From Nitrospirota bacterium (GTDB lineage Bacteria; Nitrospirota; UBA9217): 64,000 nucleotides of DNA. The stretch is taken from contig CAWBNQ010000003.1 in assembly GCA_963790205.1 (NCBI GenBank), forward strand, positions 320,001 through 384,000. The letters are read 5' to 3'. Below are positions 1,989-13,854 of this stretch, one piece after another; within the stretch, counting starts at the first letter, position 1; every line of letters starts with the position of its first letter. The translations under genes were made by a program, and so were the position numbers. The notes under the pieces were generated by a model. That model had not been told where the DNA came from, made no database searches, and saw nothing but the letters and a program-made list of their open reading frames with translations.

Positions 1989-3023
1989 ATGTCCGACCAC
2001 AATATCCCCTATAAGGTCAGGGTCCTGGCGCTGACGGCCCTCATGGTTTTTATCTGGCTCGTCGTGGGTATGGTCTACACGGAACGGTTCATCGCCCCCC
2101 TTGGCCGCCTTGAGCTGTGGTTGATGCCCTGGAAGGGGGCAATACCCCCGGGGGCCGGCCTCGACAAGCGTCTTTCCATCATGCAGGACCAGCTCGACGC
2201 GTCCAACAGGGTCTCCTATTACGCGCTGGTGGCCATGATCGTGTCCTTCGCAGCCTTTATCGTGAACCTGTCGATCGTTTACCAGCAAAAGCAGCGGAGG
2301 GCGCGGGAGAACATGTTTCTCACGCTGAAAAACCGGGAGATCGCGCGGCGAAACGAATTTATCCGCTATATCTCGGCCACCATCGGCCACGAATTCAAGA
2401 ACAATCTCGGAAGGATAAAGCGAAGGATCGACCTGCTCCCCGGCCTTCCCCGGGACGCCCAGAAACGCATCGACGACAACCTGGACAAACTGTTCGCCGA
2501 CATCGATATCTTCAAAAAAATTTCGGACGAGCGCGAAGCCGGCCTGGTCGAGTTCCAGAATACCGATCTCAAGGCCATGCTGGACGTCCTGGCGGCGCAG
2601 TACGCCGATCTGGCGGACATCGAGGTTCACGAGAGAGCCGCCATCCCGATGATCTATGCCGCCCCGCCGCTCTTGAAGACGGTGTTCGAAAATGTGGTCG
2701 ACAATGCCGTCAAATACAAAAAGGCGGGACAGCCCCGAGCGCGCGTACAGGTTTCCTCCACGATCGAGAGCGACGGCAGCAGACGATACGTGACGGTTTC
2801 CGTGCGGGACGAGGGGGTCGGCATGGATGAACAGCAGGCCGATCAGTGTTTTTACAAGGGGAAGGGCCTTGGCGAGAACTGGGGACAGGGCCTCTATTTT
2901 GCCAAATACGTCGTGGGCCTTCATGCAGGCAAAATCAGGATCGGCAAGGAATATACGGCGCCGGGGAGAGGCGCGGAAATAATCATCAATCTGCCCTTTG
3001 TCGAGGAGGCGACGGATGTTTAA
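1989..3023 (+). CDS. Membrane sensor histidine kinase
   Basis: Two TM segments; H-box IGHEFKNNL, N-box ENVVDNAVKY, G1 DEGVGM, G2 GQGLY. Confidence 0.9.
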   Translation: MSDHNIPYKVRVLALTALMVFIWLVVGMVYTERFIAPLGRLELWLMPWKGAIPPGAGLDKRLSIMQDQLDASNRVSYYALVAMIVSFAAFIVNLSIVYQQKQRRARENMFLTLKNREIARRNEFIRYISATIGHEFKNNLGRIKRRIDLLPGLPRDAQKRIDDNLDKLFADIDIFKKISDEREAGLVEFQNTDLKAMLDVLAAQYADLADIEVHERAAIPMIYAAPPLLKTVFENVVDNAVKYKKAGQPRARVQVSSTIESDGSRRYVTVSVRDEGVGMDEQQADQCFYKGKGLGENWGQGLYFAKYVVGLHAGKIRIGKEYTAPGRGAEIIINLPFVEEATDV

Positions 3024-3906
3024 GGTGCTGATCGCCGACGACGATTTCGAGGATCGGGAGCTCCTGAAACTCGAAATTCAGCGGGCCCTCAAGGGGGACG
3101 ACCCCGACCTCCGGTTTCACGAGGCGGTCAGCGTCAGGGAGGCCGTCAAGGCCCTGACAACGCAGGTCTTCGATCTCATGACGCTCGACATCGAGTTCGA
3201 CAAAATGAATGAAGGGATCGATGCTTTGCCGGAGCTCTTTGAGACCCATCCGGCGCTGAACATCATCGTCATCAGCGGCAAGCTTGACAAAAGCGAGGTT
3301 TCGGAGCGCCTCTTCCGCTTCACCAAGGACAACGTGCTGAAGGGCAAACGCTGGGCCAGGCATTTCGACGTGCTCGACAAGAAGGATGACAAGACCGAGG
3401 CACTGCGGCGCGCCCATGCGTTCGCCGTGAAGCAGCGGGAGGGAGCGGACAGCCTCCGCGAGCTGTTTCTCCTTGCCGAATCCTATCTCGAGAAGAACAT
3501 GCTCGACAAATGCCTGGGAGTCTATCAAAAAATACAGCGTCTGGCCCCCGGGGAAATCGAGTCCACGGAAAACATCCGCATCGTCCAGGGAGAGGTATCG
3601 CCCGAGCAGGCGCTTGAATATCACCGGAGAGGGGAAAAGCTCGTGGCCTCCCTCCTGCTGGGCTATTATCTGGAAAACCGCCTGAGGGCGTTCACGAGCG
3701 CGGCGCTTGGACGGACGTTCGTGATCCTTTCCGATGGCCTGAAGTCTATGGAACAGGGCCGCCGCATAAGCCACTTCAGGAAAGGCCTGTTCCGAGAGTT
3801 GCTGGGACTGCGGAACAAGGCCATCCATCAGCCGGCAGCCGTCACGGAGAGCGATTTCAAGGCGGCCGTCAAAAAACTGGAACTCCTGGAGGAAACCGCG
3901 CCATGA
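3016..3906 (+). CDS. Response regulator: receiver + TPR-like helices + C-terminal HEPN-like (RxxxxH) domain
   Basis: REC motifs IADDD, DLMTLD, IVISG, LDKK; TPR-like LAESYLEKNMLDKCLGVYQKIQRLAP; LENRL (3670-3684) and RNKAIH (3811-3828); overlaps the kinase stop. REC is secure, HEPN is inferred. Confidence 0.75.
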   Translation: MFKVLIADDDFEDRELLKLEIQRALKGDDPDLRFHEAVSVREAVKALTTQVFDLMTLDIEFDKMNEGIDALPELFETHPALNIIVISGKLDKSEVSERLFRFTKDNVLKGKRWARHFDVLDKKDDKTEALRRAHAFAVKQREGADSLRELFLLAESYLEKNMLDKCLGVYQKIQRLAPGEIESTENIRIVQGEVSPEQALEYHRRGEKLVASLLLGYYLENRLRAFTSAALGRTFVILSDGLKSMEQGRRISHFRKGLFRELLGLRNKAIHQPAAVTESDFKAAVKKLELLEETAP

Positions 3907-4550
3907 ACGGCAAGTCCCTGTGGAAATACGCGCCGCCGGCCGGCCCGACCCTCAGCCTCCTGCTTATCGGCCTGGTGCTCTTGAGCGCCCTCGTTTATTA
4001 CCGGGCGGTCAAGATCCAGCGGTTTCTTGAACCCGCCCTGGCCCTTTCCCAACCCCGAAACGAATTCACCAAAAGCATCAACCAGAAATTCCATAAGGAG
4101 TTCGGAACGGAACCGATCAGGGGCCTCACGTTCAGGTCGGGCTCCTTTCTGATGGAAAAGTCCCTGCTGTTTACCCGCGAGGGAAGGCTTACCCCTTCCG
4201 CGCAGGTCGATCTCCAGAAACTTGCCCGCGTATTCCTGGCGCTCATGAAAGATGACCATGCGCGGTCCGAGATCAGCCTCGTCATGATCATCGGCCGCTT
4301 CCCCTCCCAGGGGGCGGGGGGAACGAACATCGCGGAGTGGGCGCAGGTGGGAAGAACGGTCGGGTTCATTCAGGACGCCCTGTTTCAGCTGGAGCCCGAG
4401 CTTGGAAAGCGGTACTCGACCTTCTTTGCAAGCGTTGTTCAACCTGCAAACCCGCACGAGCGAAACATGGATGCCGTGGAGTTTCGCATCATCCCCTCGG
4501 AATTCCTGCATATAGAAGTGCTGGAGAAACTGGAGAAGTATTTCCACTGA
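3903..4550 (+). CDS. Single-TM membrane protein with degenerate MotB/OmpA-like domain
   Basis: ATGA overlap with upstream gene; N-terminal TM; pattern SLLF...L..LA...I..IG...VEFRI. Confidence 0.55.
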   Translation: MNGKSLWKYAPPAGPTLSLLLIGLVLLSALVYYRAVKIQRFLEPALALSQPRNEFTKSINQKFHKEFGTEPIRGLTFRSGSFLMEKSLLFTREGRLTPSAQVDLQKLARVFLALMKDDHARSEISLVMIIGRFPSQGAGGTNIAEWAQVGRTVGFIQDALFQLEPELGKRYSTFFASVVQPANPHERNMDAVEFRIIPSEFLHIEVLEKLEKYFH

Positions 4551-4890
4551 TCTCCCCGCTTCGAACAACCTCCCTGCCTCGAACTGCGCTCCCGCCGGGA
4601 ATCACCTGCCCCCTTCCCACAGTCTGTCCGGCTTCGTTTCAGCCTCTACGATCATAAAACACTGTCCTGACGCTGTTGTTCCCGCGTTCCTGGAGAGGGG
4701 GCGGCTTTGCGTTGAAAGGTTTCCCCAACAGGCCTCGGCGGGACCACTCTCGCTCCTGTTAATACTTTACTCCTCATTTTCCTCGAAAAACGATCACGTT
4801 GTCGCAGCGCTTGTGCTATGATTTTCATGAGCGGTTGAATGAAAATAAGCTGAATGCTCCTGCATGGGGAGAATCGGAGTCTTCAAGGGC

Positions 4891-6388
4891 ATGAGACGCA
4901 TTTTGTATATGAGGATTGCCGTTCTTGCGGCAATCGCCGGTGCTGCGCTGACGGGGTGCGCTGTCGGCCCCGATTTCCATACGCCCGAGGCCTCGGACGC
5001 GACTGCCTATACGGCGACGGCGATGCCTCCGGAGACCGCGGCCTCGCCGGGTCCCGGCGGAGCTGCGCAGCGCCTGGTCCCGGAACAGGAGCTCCCCGCG
5101 CAATGGTGGACGCTGTTTCATTCCGCGGCGCTGGACCAGCTGGTCCGCCAGGCGCTTGCGGATAACCCCACGCTCGCGGCAGCGCAGGCCACGCTCCGCC
5201 AGTCGCAGGAAAGCCTGAACGCCCTCGTCGGCTCAGCGCTCTTTCCGAAGGTAGACGCGAATGCCTCGGTTTCGCGTCAGAAGATCTCGGGCGCCGCGTT
5301 CGGCCAACCCGAATCGCAATTCAGCCCCTTTACGCTCTATAACGCCTCGGTAAGTGTCTCGTATGCGCTCGATCTTTTCGGCGGAGCGCGGCGCGAGCTT
5401 GAGGCGTTGCGGTCGCAGGTCGATTTTCAGCGTTTTCAACTTGAAGGCGCCTTTCTCACGCTCACGTCGAACGTCGTCACCACCGCGGTAAAAGAAGCGT
5501 CGCTGCGCGCGCAGATCCGGGCGACCCAGGAGATCGTCGTTGCTCAGGATAAGCAGCTCGAACTGGTAGAGCGCCAGTTGCAGCTCGGGGGTGTAGCGCG
5601 CTCCGACGTGCTCGCACAGCGGGTGCAGGTCGCGCAAACGCGGGCGACCCTGCCGCCGCTGGAAAAAGAGCTCGCGCTGACCCGCCACCAACTGGCGGTG
5701 CTTGCCGGTCGGCTCCCCGGCGAAGCAGCATCCCTGCCCGAGTTCGACCTTGACGGACTGGAGCTGCCGCAGCAGCTGCCCCTGAGCCTGCCGTCATCGC
5801 TGGTGCGCCAGCGCCCCGACATCCGCGCTTCGGAAGCGCTGCTGCACGCAGCGAGCGCGCAGGTGGGCGTTGCAACAGCGAACCTCTATCCGCAGCTCAC
5901 GCTGAGCGGCAGTTACGGGTCGGAGGCGGTCAAGCCCGGCACTCTGTTTTCCAGCGGCACGGCGGTTTGGAATCTCGGGGCGGGATTACTGCAGCCCCTC
6001 TTTCACGGCGGGGAGTTGAGCGCAAAGCGCCGTGCCGCCGTCGCCGCGTACGATCAGGCTGCGGCGCAGTATCGCGCGACCGTTCTGCAGGCGTTCCAGA
6101 ACGTGGCCGATGTGCTGCGGGCGCTGGAAGCGGATGCAAGGGCGCTCCAGGCAGCAGGCGGACGCCGAGGCGGCGGCGCGCGACACGCTCGACCTGACCC
6201 AGAAGCAGTTCCAGCTCGGCGCTGTGAGCTACCTCTCACTGCTCAATGCCGAGCGCCAGTACCAGCAGTCGAGGATCAGTCTGGTCCAGGCGCAGGCCGC
6301 GCGCTTCGCAGACACGGCGGCGCTGTTCCAGGCCCTCGGGGGCGGGTGGTGGAACCGGGAGAAGGAAGAGGTTAAAAGTAAAAAGTGA
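4891..6388 (+). pseudogene. RND efflux outer-membrane factor (NodT/TolC family lipoprotein), +1 frameshift near 6153 (possibly assembly error)
   Basis: Lipobox LTGC-AVGPDF, RQRPDIRASE, ALFQALGGGW reached only after a frame change. Confidence 0.85.
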
Positions 6389-7735: not shown

Positions 7736-7744
7736 GAGGTATTC

Positions 7745-10700
7745 ATGCATTTCACCGACCTCTTCATAAAACGTCCCGTGCTGGCCACGGTGGTGAGCCT
7801 GCTTGATTCTCGTACTGGGCCTTCGTTCGGTCGGACTTCTGCCGGTGCGCCAGTACCCGCTGATCCAGAACGCGGTCGTGACGGTCCAGACCGTGTATTA
7901 CGGCGCGGACCCGGCCCTTGTCGCCGGTTTCATCACGACGCCGCTCGAGAACTCGATCGCCCAGGCAAACGGCATCGACTATCTCACCTCTTCGAGCAGG
8001 CAGAGCGTGAGCACGATCCAGGCGAACCTGCGCCTGAATTACGATCCGAACAAGGCCCTGACCGAGATCAACACCCGGGTGAACGCGGTGCTGAACCAGC
8101 TGCCCCGTGACGCGCAGCAGCCCGTCATCACCGTCGCCATCGGCGAGACCATCGATTCGATGTACATCGGTTTTTCGAGCAAGGTGCTGCCCACGAACAA
8201 GATCACCGACTATCTGATCCGGGTCGTGCAGCCCAAGCTGCAGGCCGTGGACGGCGTGCAGACGGCCGAGATCCTGGGCCAGCGCCAGTTCGCGCTCCGG
8301 GCGTGGCTCGACCCGGTGAAGATGGCGGCCCTGGGCGTCACCGCCACGGACGTGAGCAACGCCCTGGCGGCCAATGACTTCATCTCCGCCCTGGGCCGCA
8401 CCAAGGGCCAGATGGTGACCGTGGACCTCACCGCGGACACGAGCCTGCACTCCGTGGACGAATTCCGCAACCTCGTGATCCGGCAGAAGAACGGCGCGCT
8501 CGTCCGCCTGGGCGACGTGGCCAACGTGACGCTCGGGGCCGAAGACTACGATACGGCGGTGACCTTCGACGGCAAGAGCGCCGTGTACATCGGCATCAAG
8601 GTCGCGCCCACGGCCAACCTGCTCACGGTGATCGACGGCGTGCGCAAGGCCTTTCCCGCAATCGCGGAGCAGCTGCCGCGAAGGACTCGACGGCCGCATC
8701 GTGTACGACGCCACAAAGTACGTGAACAGCTCGATCCGCGAGGTGGTCAGGACCCTGATCGAGGCGCTCCTGATCGTGACGGTCGTGATCTTCCTGTTCC
8801 TCGGCACGGTGCGGTCGGTCATCATCCCGACGATCGCCATGCCGCTCTCCCTGATCGGCGCGTTTTTCATCATGCTCGTGCTGGGCTACACCATCAACCT
8901 TCTGACCCTGCTCGCGCTGGTGCTCGCCATCGGCCTCGTGGTCGATGACGCCATCATCGTGGTCGAGAACGTGCACCGCCACATGGAGGCAGGCATGAAG
9001 CCCCTGCCCGCCGCGCTCCAGGGCGCGCGCGAGCTCGCCGGGCCCATCGTCGCTATCTCGGTGGTTCTGATCGCCGTGTACATTCCCATCGGGTTCATGG
9101 GCGGGCTCACGGGCGCGCTCTTCACCGAGTTCGCCTACACCCTGGCCGGGGCCGTGGCCGTGTCCGCGGTCATCGCGCTCACGCTCTCGCCCATGATGTG
9201 TTCGCGGTTCCTCAAACCCTTCGAGCACGACGGCCAGAACCGGTTCGCGGCATGGATCGACCGGCAGTTCGGGAACCTGCGCCAGCGGCTACGAGCGGCT
9301 GCTGCACGCGTCGCTCAACACGCTTGCGGTCACGGGCGTGTTCGCCGCGCTCATTCTCGTGAGCATTTATTTTCTCTATACGACCTCGAAGAGCGAGCTC
9401 GCGCCCGACGAGGACCAGGGCATCATCATCGCGCTCACCACGGCGGCGCCCAATGCCACGCTGGACCAGACGCTGCTCTCGACGCGGCAGGTGTACGATA
9501 TTTTCGCTTCCTATCCCGAGACCGACCATGTGTTCCAGTTCGCCGGCGCCGGCGCGCTGAACATCGCCTTCAGCGGCATGGTGTTCAAACCGTGGGATGA
9601 GCGGAAACGCACGTCGATGGAGCTGCTGCCGCCAGGTCCAGATGAAGCTGGGCCGGATCGCCGCTTCCCGCTCGGCTGCCTTTCTCAGGCCTCCGCTTCC
9701 CGGAAGCAGCGGGCTGCCGGTACAGTTCGTGATCGGCACGACCGAATCCTACGAGCGCCTGAACGAGGTTTCACAGGCCTTTCTGGGCAAGGCCTATGCC
9801 AGCGGCATGTTTGCCTACCTGGACAATGATCTCAAGCTCGACAAACCGCAGACCACGGTCGACATCGACCGCGACAAGGCGGCCCAGCTCGGTTTGACCA
9901 TGCGGGACGTGGGCGGCGCCCTGGGGTCCATGCTGGGCGGCGGCTATGTCAACTACTTCAGCCTTGCCGGCCGCTCCTACAAGGTGATCCCGCAGGTGAT
10001 GCGAGGCAAGAGCGGTTGAACGCGGAGCAGCTGAAGGACTATTACATCACGACGCCGGCGGGGGCATCGGTGCCGCTTTCGACGATAACGAAATTAAGGA
10101 CGACCGTCGTTCCCGAGTCCCTGAACCACTTTCAGCAGCTCAATTCAGCGACCGTTTCGGGCGTGCTGAGGCAGGGCGTTACCCTGGGCCAGGCCCTGGA
10201 AACGCTCACGGCCCTGGCAAAGGACGCCCTGCCGCAGGGTTACAGCGTCGATTACGCGGGCCAGTCCCGGCAGTACGTGCAGGAATCGACGGCGCTCGAG
10301 GTCACGTTCGTTTTCTCGATGATCATCATTTTCCTGGCGCTTGCGGCCTTGTTCGAGAGCTTCCGCGATCCCTTCATCGTGCTCGTCTCCGTGCCCATGT
10401 CGATCTGCGGGGCCATGATCTTCATCAGCCTGGGCGTGGGCGGGGCGAGCCTGAATATCTACACCGAGGTGGGTCTGGTGACCTTGATCGGCCTCATCAG
10501 CAAGCACGGCATCCTCATCGTCCAGTTCGCGAACGACCTCCAGCGCGAGGGCAAGGGCAAGCGCGAGGCCGTGGAGACGGCCGCCGCGATCCGGCTCCGG
10601 CCGATCCTGATGACGACCGCGGCCATGGTCCTGGGCGTGCTGCCGCTCGTGACCGCGACGGGCGCCGGCGCCGCAGGCCGCTTCAACATGGGGCTGGTGA

Positions 10701-10840
10701 TCATGACCGGGATATCGATCGGCACCCTGTTCACGCTGTTCGTAGTGCCGGCGATGTATATGTTCCTTGCAGCGGAGCACGTGAAGGAGGAGGCGGGCGA
10801 GGGAATTCCGGGTGCGGCGCCGCAATCGCCTCGCTCCTGA
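7745..10840 (+). pseudogene. RND permease (AcrB/MexI-like), about 5 frameshifts (possibly assembly errors)
   Basis: MHFTDLFIKRPVLA start, GLVVDDAIIVVENV, RLRPILMTT, TLFVVPAMY spread over six consecutive frame segments. Confidence 0.9.
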
Positions 10841-12159: not shown

Positions 12160-12444
12160 ATGCTGTCGAAAATACCCCTTCAGCTCGAAAAGGTCAGGAA
12201 AGAGGATGTGGACAAGGAGATCCTTCGGGCCGGGATCATGGCGGAGCTGGATGCCGTCAACCTCTATGAGCAACTGGCCGCGATGACCCGGAAGGAGGAA
12301 ATCCGGAAAATCCTTCTCGATATTGCGCGGGAGGAAAAAACGCACGTGGGGGAATTCCAGGCCCTTCTGCTGAGGGAAGACCCGGAACAGGCGGAAGAAC
12401 TGCGCGCAGGAGAGCGTGAGGTACGCGAGAAAACGGACGGTTGA
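12160..12444 (+). CDS. Small ferritin-like protein (encapsulated ferritin/Flp-like)
   Basis: AELDAVNLYEQ and REEKTHVGEF di-iron motifs; AAGGAG RBS. Confidence 0.8.
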   Translation: MLSKIPLQLEKVRKEDVDKEILRAGIMAELDAVNLYEQLAAMTRKEEIRKILLDIAREEKTHVGEFQALLLREDPEQAEELRAGEREVREKTDG

Positions 12445-12549: not shown

Positions 12550-13854
12550 CTATTTCCCGCGGGTCGAGGACAGCCTCCCGATCAAGGTGTTCAGAAACAT
12601 CTTGGTAAACTTCAGCTGGCAGAATACCGAGGTTTTTTCGAGCAGCTCGTTGCTGATCTTCAGAGCCGCCACGTCGGTCGCCGATCGGATGCTCACGGTG
12701 CGCGGCCTCTTGGCGACGTACGCCATCTCACCGAAACAATCGCCTGCCTTCAGCGCGGCCATGATGTTCCCGGCCACCAGTACCGAGACCTCCCCCTCGA
12801 TGACCACATAAAAAGATTCATCGAGGTCTCCTTCGCTCAGAATCATCCGGCCGGGAGCATATTCCAGCCATACGCCCGCGTTAACGACCTCCGACAGCTC
12901 GATCTCGAAAAAATCCCTGAAGAACGGCAGTTTCGCGAGCCGGTCAAGTTTTTCCCTCATGCCCACATCGCTTGTCACGACCGCGTGCACGATCTTTTTA
13001 TGGAACGCGTTCAGGTCCACGGCCATGTCCGCGGCGCTCGGATAGCGGTCTTTCACGTCCTTGGCCAGGGCTTTTCTCAGAATCGGCTCAAGAAGATCGG
13101 GCGCGTCGGGCCGGAATTGCCCCAGGGGCGCAGGCTCGTCGTTAATGATCTGCAGGACGAGTTCATCCAGGCCCGGACCCGGGAACGGGCGATGGCCGGT
13201 CAGCATGAAATACATGACCACCCCGAGGGAATAGATATCGGCCTGGTGATTCACCGGTTCCTTCAGCAGCCGTTCCGGGGACAGGTGCATCGGAGTGCCG
13301 AGAATATTTTCCAGGTACAGATGCTCGGTGTCCGGGTGCAGGATCTTCGCAAGGCCGAAATCGGCCAGTTTCACCCGGTCGTCAGGGGTGAGCATGATGT
13401 TGTTGGCCTTGATGTCCAGATGGATGACGTTGCGTGAGTGGGCGTATTGAAGCCCTTTGCAGCACTGATACAGGATCTCGACGGCCTTCGGTATGGGCAG
13501 GAGGTTGTCCTGCTGACAGTATTGCTGCAGGGTCCTGCTGTCCTCGATATATTCCATGACCAGATAGTACCGGTCCCCGTCTTGTCCGGCGTCGTACACG
13601 GGAAGGATGTTCCGGTGGTCCAGCAGCCCGTATATCTGGGCTTCGGTGAAAAAGAGCTCCACGAGCCTCCGCCGGATCCTGTCTTCGGAGAGGGACTTGG
13701 GGTCGGTGACCTTGATGGCCACGTTCCTCTGCATGTAGGGGTCAAAGGCCTTGTAGACCATGCCCATGCTGCCCTGGCCGATTTTACTGATGACATGGAA
13801 TTTTCCTATCTGCGACGGAGACAGCGCTTCGTTACCGGCATTCGCACTCTTCAT
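12550..13854 (-). CDS. Ser/Thr protein kinase with C-terminal cyclic-nucleotide-binding domain
   Basis: GQGSMG, VAIK, HLDIKANN, DFG, SPE; FGEMA...PRT phosphate-binding cassette. Confidence 0.92.
   Translation of the reverse strand: MKSANAGNEALSPSQIGKFHVISKIGQGSMGMVYKAFDPYMQRNVAIKVTDPKSLSEDRIRRRLVELFFTEAQIYGLLDHRNILPVYDAGQDGDRYYLVMEYIEDSRTLQQYCQQDNLLPIPKAVEILYQCCKGLQYAHSRNVIHLDIKANNIMLTPDDRVKLADFGLAKILHPDTEHLYLENILGTPMHLSPERLLKEPVNHQADIYSLGVVMYFMLTGHRPFPGPGLDELVLQIINDEPAPLGQFRPDAPDLLEPILRKALAKDVKDRYPSAADMAVDLNAFHKKIVHAVVTSDVGMREKLDRLAKLPFFRDFFEIELSEVVNAGVWLEYAPGRMILSEGDLDESFYVVIEGEVSVLVAGNIMAALKAGDCFGEMAYVAKRPRTVSIRSATDVAALKISNELLEKTSVFCQLKFTKMFLNTLIGRLSSTRGK

Follow-up and report, generated by a model that had tools for sequence, protein, structure and literature searches.

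Bacterial response regulators mostly act by binding DNA, and few of them have RNA-binding or enzymatic outputs. A locus in the genome of a Nitrospirota bacterium raises the question of whether a two-component system can act directly on RNA: three overlapping genes encode a membrane histidine kinase, a response regulator ending in a putative HEPN RNase domain, and a membrane protein resembling ZorB and MotB. The locus lies within a window of 64,000 nucleotides, the whole stretch of DNA that was analysed, and an initial annotation had suggested that an envelope signal could switch on an RNase through phosphorylation of the regulator. Here, we consider whether these genes form a conserved system, what the output domain is likely to be, and which cellular purpose it would serve. 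The features discussed are as follows.

1951-1979, + strand: predicted sigma-70-type promoter (−35-like box 1951-1956, spacer of 17 nt, −10-like box 1974-1979)
1989-3023, + strand: cassette gene 1, membrane histidine kinase, 344 aa
3016-3906, + strand: cassette gene 2, REC-TPR-HEPN response regulator, 296 aa
3016-3441, + strand: receiver domain of the regulator, aa 1-142, with D8/D9, D58, S87 and K122
3442-3597, + strand: TPR-like helical linker of the regulator, aa 143-194
3598-3906, + strand: HEPN domain of the regulator, DUF4145-like, aa 195-296, with profile match and invariant motif
3903-4550, + strand: cassette gene 3, ORF3, ZorB/MotB-like single-TM protein, 215 aa

A conserved three-gene cassette

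The overlaps between the three genes, which the initial annotation had pointed out, are plain in the window: the stop of the kinase gene and the ATG of the regulator overlap at 3016-3023, and the regulator and ORF3 join in an ATGA at 3903. This order is preserved at 63 of 65 genome loci. The kinase lies immediately upstream of the regulator at 64 of the 65, the remaining locus being truncated by a contig end, and ORF3 lies downstream at 63, with one exception truncated by a contig end and the other, L060, broken. The L060 regulator is interrupted near residue 206 and fused to unrelated sequence, and is probably an assembly chimera. Among metagenome loci (the best 80 of 196), the kinase is found at 75/80 and ORF3 at 79/80, all absences being contig ends. 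When loci are anchored on ORF3, the regulator is upstream at 78 of 80; the exceptions carry ORF3 without an upstream regulator, solo in L106 and preceded by other genes in L087. In L106 the ORF3 homologue (4968-5606) is intact, with a −10-like box kept before the ORF and a siroheme-synthase-like gene downstream, and there is no kinase or regulator. Across the phylum (301 genomes), the regulator occurs in 44 genomes and ORF3 in 43, every one of them among those 44; the corresponding counts in the bacterium's own family (63 genomes) are 34 and 33. ORF3 is a near-obligate partner of the regulator, and no fourth gene is co-conserved with the cassette among the loci compared.

These observations confirm the cassette as a real, conserved system. 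None of the findings that the initial annotation had named as fatal to its reading (a non-HEPN fold of the C-terminal domain, R and H that vary among homologues, genes that do not co-occur) was seen: by profile the domain is HEPN-like, R, H and E are invariant, and the genes co-occur. A chance motif was also considered and rejected, given the invariant motif residues, the profile matches and the three-gene order kept across the family.

A protein search with the regulator returned 652 relatives, the best 120 of which have 81-100% identity. The titles of the 65 genome loci are almost all Nitrospirota/Thermodesulfovibrionia, with two contigs labelled Betaproteobacteria and two unlabelled. Clustering at 50% leaves the regulator family as approximately one cluster plus fragments, and regulator identity across families is 61-88%. 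Presence is patchy even inside genera (3/6 genomes in g5 and 8/15 in g7), and the cassette is dispensable, since near-complete genomes from the same family and genera are without it.

Several other genes lie near the cassette in the window. Upstream and divergent from it is a gene for a methionine sulfoxide reductase in which MsrA and MsrB are fused and the N-terminus has a hydrophobic stretch (799-1875, − strand); this gene is not a conserved neighbour among the loci compared. An RND efflux operon lies downstream (4864-6388 and 7744-10840); its OEP/TolC-like gene changes frame near 6150 and its AcrB-like gene is split over several frames, possibly through sequencing errors. Further along are a small protein of the encapsulated-ferritin-like/rubrerythrin type (12160-12444, + strand) and a Ser/Thr protein kinase with a fused C-terminal cNMP-binding domain (12550-13854, − strand).

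Histidine kinase, receiver and linker

The kinase matches HATPase_c (PF02518, E 1.5e-14) in Pfam. Its H-box holds H134 within GHEFKNN, with the ExxN pattern (H134 codon 2388-2390), and the N, G1 and G2 boxes are all present. Hydropathy indicates two hydrophobic helices near aa 12-30 and 79-97, with a loop of ∼45 aa between them that is predicted to be extracytoplasmic. Residues H134, E135, N138, N235, D238, N239, D274, G276, G278, G299 and G301 are invariant in 57/57 sequences, so that the box positions, the hydropathy and the alignment all bear out the earlier description of intact H/N/G boxes and a short extracytoplasmic loop. An ESM Atlas search with the kinase N-terminus gave nothing usable (best 0.78).

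The N-terminus of the regulator matches Response_reg (E 1.5e-9, Pfam) and has the acid pocket, phosphoacceptor Asp, S/T and Lys of a two-component receiver. The phosphoacceptor D58 is encoded at 3187-3189, and D8, D58, S87 and K122 are invariant in the alignment, in keeping with the intact receiver originally proposed. From the overlapping genes and their co-occurrence, we infer that the kinase may transfer phosphate to this receiver. Between beta4 and beta5 of the receiver there is a highly conserved basic insertion (about aa 92-116; 3289-3363), in which K109, K111, R112, W113, R115 and H116 are invariant; it is a possible dimer or RNA-binding surface.

The receiver is followed by helices that had been likened to a TPR pair. 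In the window's regulator TPR_2 matches at residues 149-179 with E 0.013, under the Pfam cut-off, while among family members at E<=1 TPR_6 is found in 61/62 and TPR_2 in 60/62 (best 2e-4); the AF2 model agrees, with helices at 145-159, 163-176 and 181-190. Omega is 0.08 in the receiver and in the TPR part (22 independent pairs). No HTH family reaches its Pfam cut-off in the regulator, as the annotation had held. An HTH output was rejected: the candidate, HTH_60, has only E 0.055 and 14.2 bits against a cut-off of 24.1, and is absent from the 25 families listed for the 62 regulator family members.

The HEPN output domain

Active HEPN domains have been described as carrying Rx4-6H at the end of helix 3, with N, D or H after the R; their helix 2 bears Ex3[KR] and is separated from helix 3 by an insert (PMC3710099, in part). 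The C-terminal domain of the regulator has each of these elements. E220 (codon 3673-3675) lies within Ex3[KR], and R266-N267-x3-H271 (codons 3811-3828) lies at the end of helix 3. The AF2 model places helices at 196-204, 208-231, 253-271 and 278-292 and an insert at 238-247, with pLDDT about 85-95 over 201-290; the four-helix topology and the helix 2/3 insert are read solely from this secondary structure, in which E220 falls within helix 208-231. The all-helical domain with LENRL and LRNKAIH that had been noted from the letters is therefore present, and is helical in the model.

Conservation of the motif residues is close to complete. An alignment of 62 loci (the 65 genome loci minus 3 that are partial or frameshifted) has E220, R266 and H271 in 62/62, K or R at position 224 in 58/62, and N at position 267 in 60 with H in the other two; replacement of N267 by H alone is as the published HEPN rule predicts (PMC3710099, in part). 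Nine of 101 positions in the domain are invariant across the 62 loci, and the polar ones are E220, R266 and H271 only. The same three residues are kept in 119/119 proteins and in 80/80 metagenome loci, and R-N-x3-H in 22/22 further loci, these sets (62, 119, 80 and 22) overlapping and consisting of kin. All six Arg codons are used at position R266, and omega for the domain is 0.16 (22 independent pairs). The HEPN catalytic residues are under strong constraint, and the proposal that R and H would be conserved in homologues is upheld in each of the three larger sets.

Profile comparisons place the domain near known HEPN families. At E<=1, Pfam finds DUF4145 in 36/62 members (best 6e-5) and HepT-like in 15/62, the window's own regulator copy being below every Pfam HEPN cut-off. 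With hhalign, the match to a DUF4145 alignment (14 domains) scores 94.3% (E 1e-7, 88 columns), compared with 63.9% for a HepT-like alignment (17 proteins) and 0.3% for a control. When the domain profile was searched against PDB sequences, 3/4 rows were HepT structures, though only at E 0.33-0.61, and the best ESM Atlas cluster for the C-terminal domain (0.87) has DUF4145 in 13% of its members, which is a lead only. Fold searches with the full-length regulator, filled by receiver domains, are uninformative on the HEPN fold, so that of the profile and fold checks suggested at the outset the profile-profile comparison supports HEPN and the Foldseek search of the full-length model listed receivers only. 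A search among longer proteins gave no match, a weak piece of evidence. Together, the matches to DUF4145 and HepT and the invariant E/R/H support the view that the C-terminal domain is HEPN-like, as the initial annotation had claimed.

Related architectures were also seen. P0143 is a distant full-length REC-TPR-HEPN relative (309 aa, 31% identity over 266 aligned columns) with an intact motif; it exceeds the DUF4145 cut-off, is a singleton on a 1.2-kb contig, and suggests that the architecture is present outside this regulator family. In family f10 genomes, four loci (L240, L243, L248 and L238) encode proteins of ∼320-340 aa with a C-terminal DUF4145-type HEPN (R-N-x3-H) behind an unrelated N-terminal domain. 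A weak match, P0159, combines REC, TPR and DUF2325 in another unusual regulator architecture.

The membrane partner ORF3

ORF3 has no match in Pfam or NCBIfam, and the 8 Pfam OmpA matches in its own genome do not include it. Its model resembles ZorB/MotB/OmpA-like structures, with ZorB the top fold match over the full length, and its single TM passes without a linker into the OmpA-like domain, a fusion described as a ZorB trait (PMC11946911). The same study found a TM aspartate (Asp26) to be essential in ZorB; in ORF3, D or E falls within the TM segment in just 1/59 sequences. The peptidoglycan-binding pattern (ZorB Y151/N152/L155/R159) is likewise missing, with no N-x2-L-x3-R in either register in the 59 sequences; N142 is found in 33/59, R152 in 17/59 and P134 in 55/59. 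In the register that we assume, P134 presumably occupies the Asp position of OmpA-like domains. The cassette has no ZorA/MotA partner, and the genome's single MotA_ExbB match sits on another contig. ORF3 is therefore not an ion motor, as the cassette lacks the TM Asp, the canonical peptidoglycan motif and ZorA/MotA. Of the original description as a MotB/OmpA-like membrane protein, the ZorB/MotB fold stands in the model, while the motor Asp is missing, as are the residues that canonically bind peptidoglycan. A positive-inside count of 2.5 versus 3.0 K/R does not settle the topology.

Predicted promoter and leaderless mRNA

In the window, the −10-like hexamer of the predicted kinase promoter ends 9 nt before the ATG, and there is no Shine-Dalgarno sequence. 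A −10-like hexamer is found 4-9 nt before the kinase ATG at 50/50 loci (49 of 61 kinase loci plus the window), compared with 106/1999 (5%) of own-genome long ORFs, whose first-ATG starts are imprecise; shuffles gave a mean of 7.2 and a maximum of 15. By contrast, a Shine-Dalgarno-like word precedes the kinase at 4/50 loci versus 750/1999 of the same long ORFs. A consensus scan gave neither a convincing terminator nor a convincing promoter, and the box at 1951-1979 is absent from its list. The position of the −10 box and the lack of a Shine-Dalgarno sequence lead to the prediction that the operon has its own sigma-70-type promoter and an mRNA that is leaderless or nearly so. A promoter of its own fits the survival of the cassette in changing neighbourhoods.

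Inheritance and gene neighbourhood

Trees of the cassette and of rpoB were compared in 29 genomes (FastTree, with no formal test). The patristic correlation is 0.85 with one discordant second copy included and 0.91 with that genome's other copy, and 10/12 supported cassette splits are found in the rpoB tree. Two deep splits conflict, which together with the discordant second copy points to some transfer or binning noise.

The flanks were sampled as 129 ORFs from 34 loci, with crude ORF calling. Eight of the 129 match PADLOC at E<=1e-10: four are SMC/methyltransferase-type cross-hits, two make up a type I RM system at a single locus, and the other two may be defence or mobile genes. This leaves one clear defence neighbour (type I RM, L043) and two possible ones (L027, L037) in 34 loci, with no base rate alongside. 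Other flanking genes include gyrA, gatA/B, pheT, rplI, hisD, rpsA, rny, smc and signalling genes. On the cassette itself, PADLOC gave weak receiver and ZorB matches only. No relatives of the cassette were found in viral contigs or in plasmids. The cassette contains no antitoxin gene, and no HEPN/MNT nucleotidyltransferase antitoxin Pfam was found beside it in the 129 flanking ORFs at E<=1e-12, a scan that covered ORFs of at least 120 aa.

Mostly vertical inheritance, mostly housekeeping flanks and the lack of a viral or plasmid copy favour a chromosomal stress or regulatory switch over mobile phage defence, and favour regarding the cassette as an old, often-lost chromosomal module rather than a mobile defence cassette. 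We infer that it is probably a mostly vertically inherited, self-contained two-component system with an endoribonuclease output. Of the roles proposed initially, the anti-phage one is weakened by the mostly vertical inheritance and the non-defence neighbourhoods.

Proposed mechanism and alternative explanations

Receivers commonly dimerize on phosphorylation, and HEPN RNases build composite active sites in dimers. A HEPN RNase output is put forward for the cassette because E/R/H are invariant, the kinase and receiver residues are intact and there is no DNA-binding domain. In the proposed mechanism, ORF3, a motor-less ZorB/MotB derivative, would serve as an accessory sensor, using its conserved juxtamembrane helix to pass the state of the envelope or membrane to the two TM helices and short loop of the kinase. 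The kinase would phosphorylate or dephosphorylate D58, and receiver dimerization, relayed by the TPR linker, would pair two R-N-x3-H motifs to form a composite HEPN site; PorX provides a precedent in that it dimerizes with acetyl phosphate (PMC9757075, in part). The composite site would cut cellular RNA (mRNA, tRNA or rRNA), and under envelope stress expression would be remodelled post-transcriptionally or growth would be reversibly arrested. As a speculation, the leaderless operon mRNA could stay translatable while Shine-Dalgarno-led translation falls.

That the cassette encodes an active, phosphorylation-gated RNase acting on cellular RNA is highly probable when its stress and phage-defence versions are taken together. 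An Ire1-like pathway, in which the motor-less ZorB derivative and the kinase sense envelope perturbation (stress or phage entry) and D-phosphorylation switches HEPN on, is moderately likely, and for the specific reading as a phosphorylation-gated HEPN RNase in stress or regulation, a bacterial analogue of Ire1, the balance tips slightly in favour. With the same biochemistry, the purpose could differ: in Zorya-like abortive infection, the ZorB-like protein would sense the breach caused by phage entry, the kinase would relay the signal and HEPN would stop the cell. The top fold match of ORF3 is the anti-phage ZorB, full length and with the linker-less TM fusion (PMC11946911), presence is patchy, as is typical of defence systems, the compact unit occurs in variable contexts, and HEPN RNases are often Abi effectors, most characterized bacterial ones acting in conflict systems (PMC3710099, in part). 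This version is nevertheless unlikely, if a serious contender, in view of the few defence neighbours (1 clear and 2 possible in 34 loci), a cassette tree that tracks rpoB, regulators that keep 61-88% identity across families with omega of 0.08-0.16, the lack of any viral-contig or plasmid match, and an ORF3 without the essential Asp and peptidoglycan residues of ZorB.

Two further explanations change the biochemistry. The HEPN site could be a ligand- or RNA-binding or protein-interaction surface and the regulator a phospho-switched adaptor, given that non-catalytic HEPN domains exist (PMC3710099, in part), that the dimer geometry is presumed, and that the conserved basic insertion of the receiver could itself bind RNA. 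The non-catalytic HEPN families named in the available part of PMC3710099 lose Rx4-6H, though, and the cassette HEPN retains E, R, N/H and H while neighbouring positions vary, which makes an adaptor rather improbable. It is very improbable that the target is a small messenger oligonucleotide (an oligoadenylate, cyclic or linear) in place of cellular RNA. The model for such an activity is phosphorylated PorX, with a REC, a helical bundle and a nuclease-type domain, which cleaves cA3, cA4, cA6 and pApA (PMC9757075, in part) by means of PglZ. PorX heads the regulator's Foldseek list, but with a TM of 0.34 and an rmsd of about 15, probably through the receiver only; the output folds differ (HEPN versus PglZ), and neither a cyclase nor a CRISPR or CBASS gene is conserved beside the cassette.

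Relation to known systems

One of the closest parallels to the proposed phosphorylation-gated RNase is eukaryotic. Ire1 and RNase L also couple a kinase to a HEPN RNase, and Ire1, which is linked to the membrane, cleaves RNA as part of a stress response (PMC3710099, in part); there the kinase is a eukaryotic Ser/Thr kinase fused in one chain, whereas the cassette has a His-Asp phosphorelay, its HEPN is of the DUF4145 type, and its ZorB-like partner is a separate protein. The cassette HEPN shares its profile match, Ex3[KR] and R-N-x3-H with DUF4145 (PF13643) and HepT (PF01934). HepT has an invariant Tyr where the cassette HEPN has an invariant Pro, and unlike HepT toxins the cassette is without an MNT antitoxin gene. 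DUF4145 fusions in Table 1 of PMC3710099 involve REase, helicase, TM, TIR and others, with no receiver.

The PorX regulator of PorXY resembles the cassette regulator in its receiver, helical linker and enzyme output of an oligonucleotide-cleaving type (PMC9757075, in part), but is an orphan regulator whose PglZ phosphodiesterase depends on metal and cleaves short oligonucleotides; the cassette regulator shares an operon with its kinase, and its HEPN-type site is predicted to be metal-independent. CARF-HEPN effectors such as Csm6 and Csx1 also have an N-terminal sensor that gates a C-terminal HEPN RNase (PMC3710099, in part); they are gated by nucleotide ligands and tied to CRISPR, where aspartate phosphorylation is proposed for the cassette. 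The cassette would thus resemble Ire1 and Csm6 in having a sensor-gated HEPN, and PorX in the nuclease-type output of its regulator, yet it falls within none of these systems. ORF3 shares a single TM and OmpA-like fold with Zorya ZorB and flagellar MotB, and is linker-less as is ZorB, but differs from both in the missing TM aspartate, canonical peptidoglycan motif and ZorA/MotA, and its signal would go through a histidine kinase.

Stimulus-dependent RNA degradation by membrane HEPN proteins has been predicted, and in the available part of the same paper receivers appear solely as domains that can take the place of HEPN on a common TM domain (PMC3710099). The available parts of PMC8195603, PMC7159879 and PMC12839542 describe no such REC-HEPN system, and none was found in the literature outside subscription papers, although the full architecture tables of PMC3710099 could list one. 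A two-component system with a HEPN RNase output is apparently previously undescribed.

Significance

The cassette has just three genes, and the residues to mutate (H134, D58, R266 and H271) are clear, which makes the system directly testable, and a phosphorylation-controlled RNase tool is a possible use. If the proposed mechanism is true, RNase joins the output classes of response regulators. With a receiver gating HEPN, a signal at the membrane would lead straight to RNA destruction, reversibly and with no transcription step, in the way that Ire1 works in eukaryotes. Envelope parts of the Zorya/MotB type and a toxin-type RNase would also have been domesticated into a stable chromosomal signalling module.
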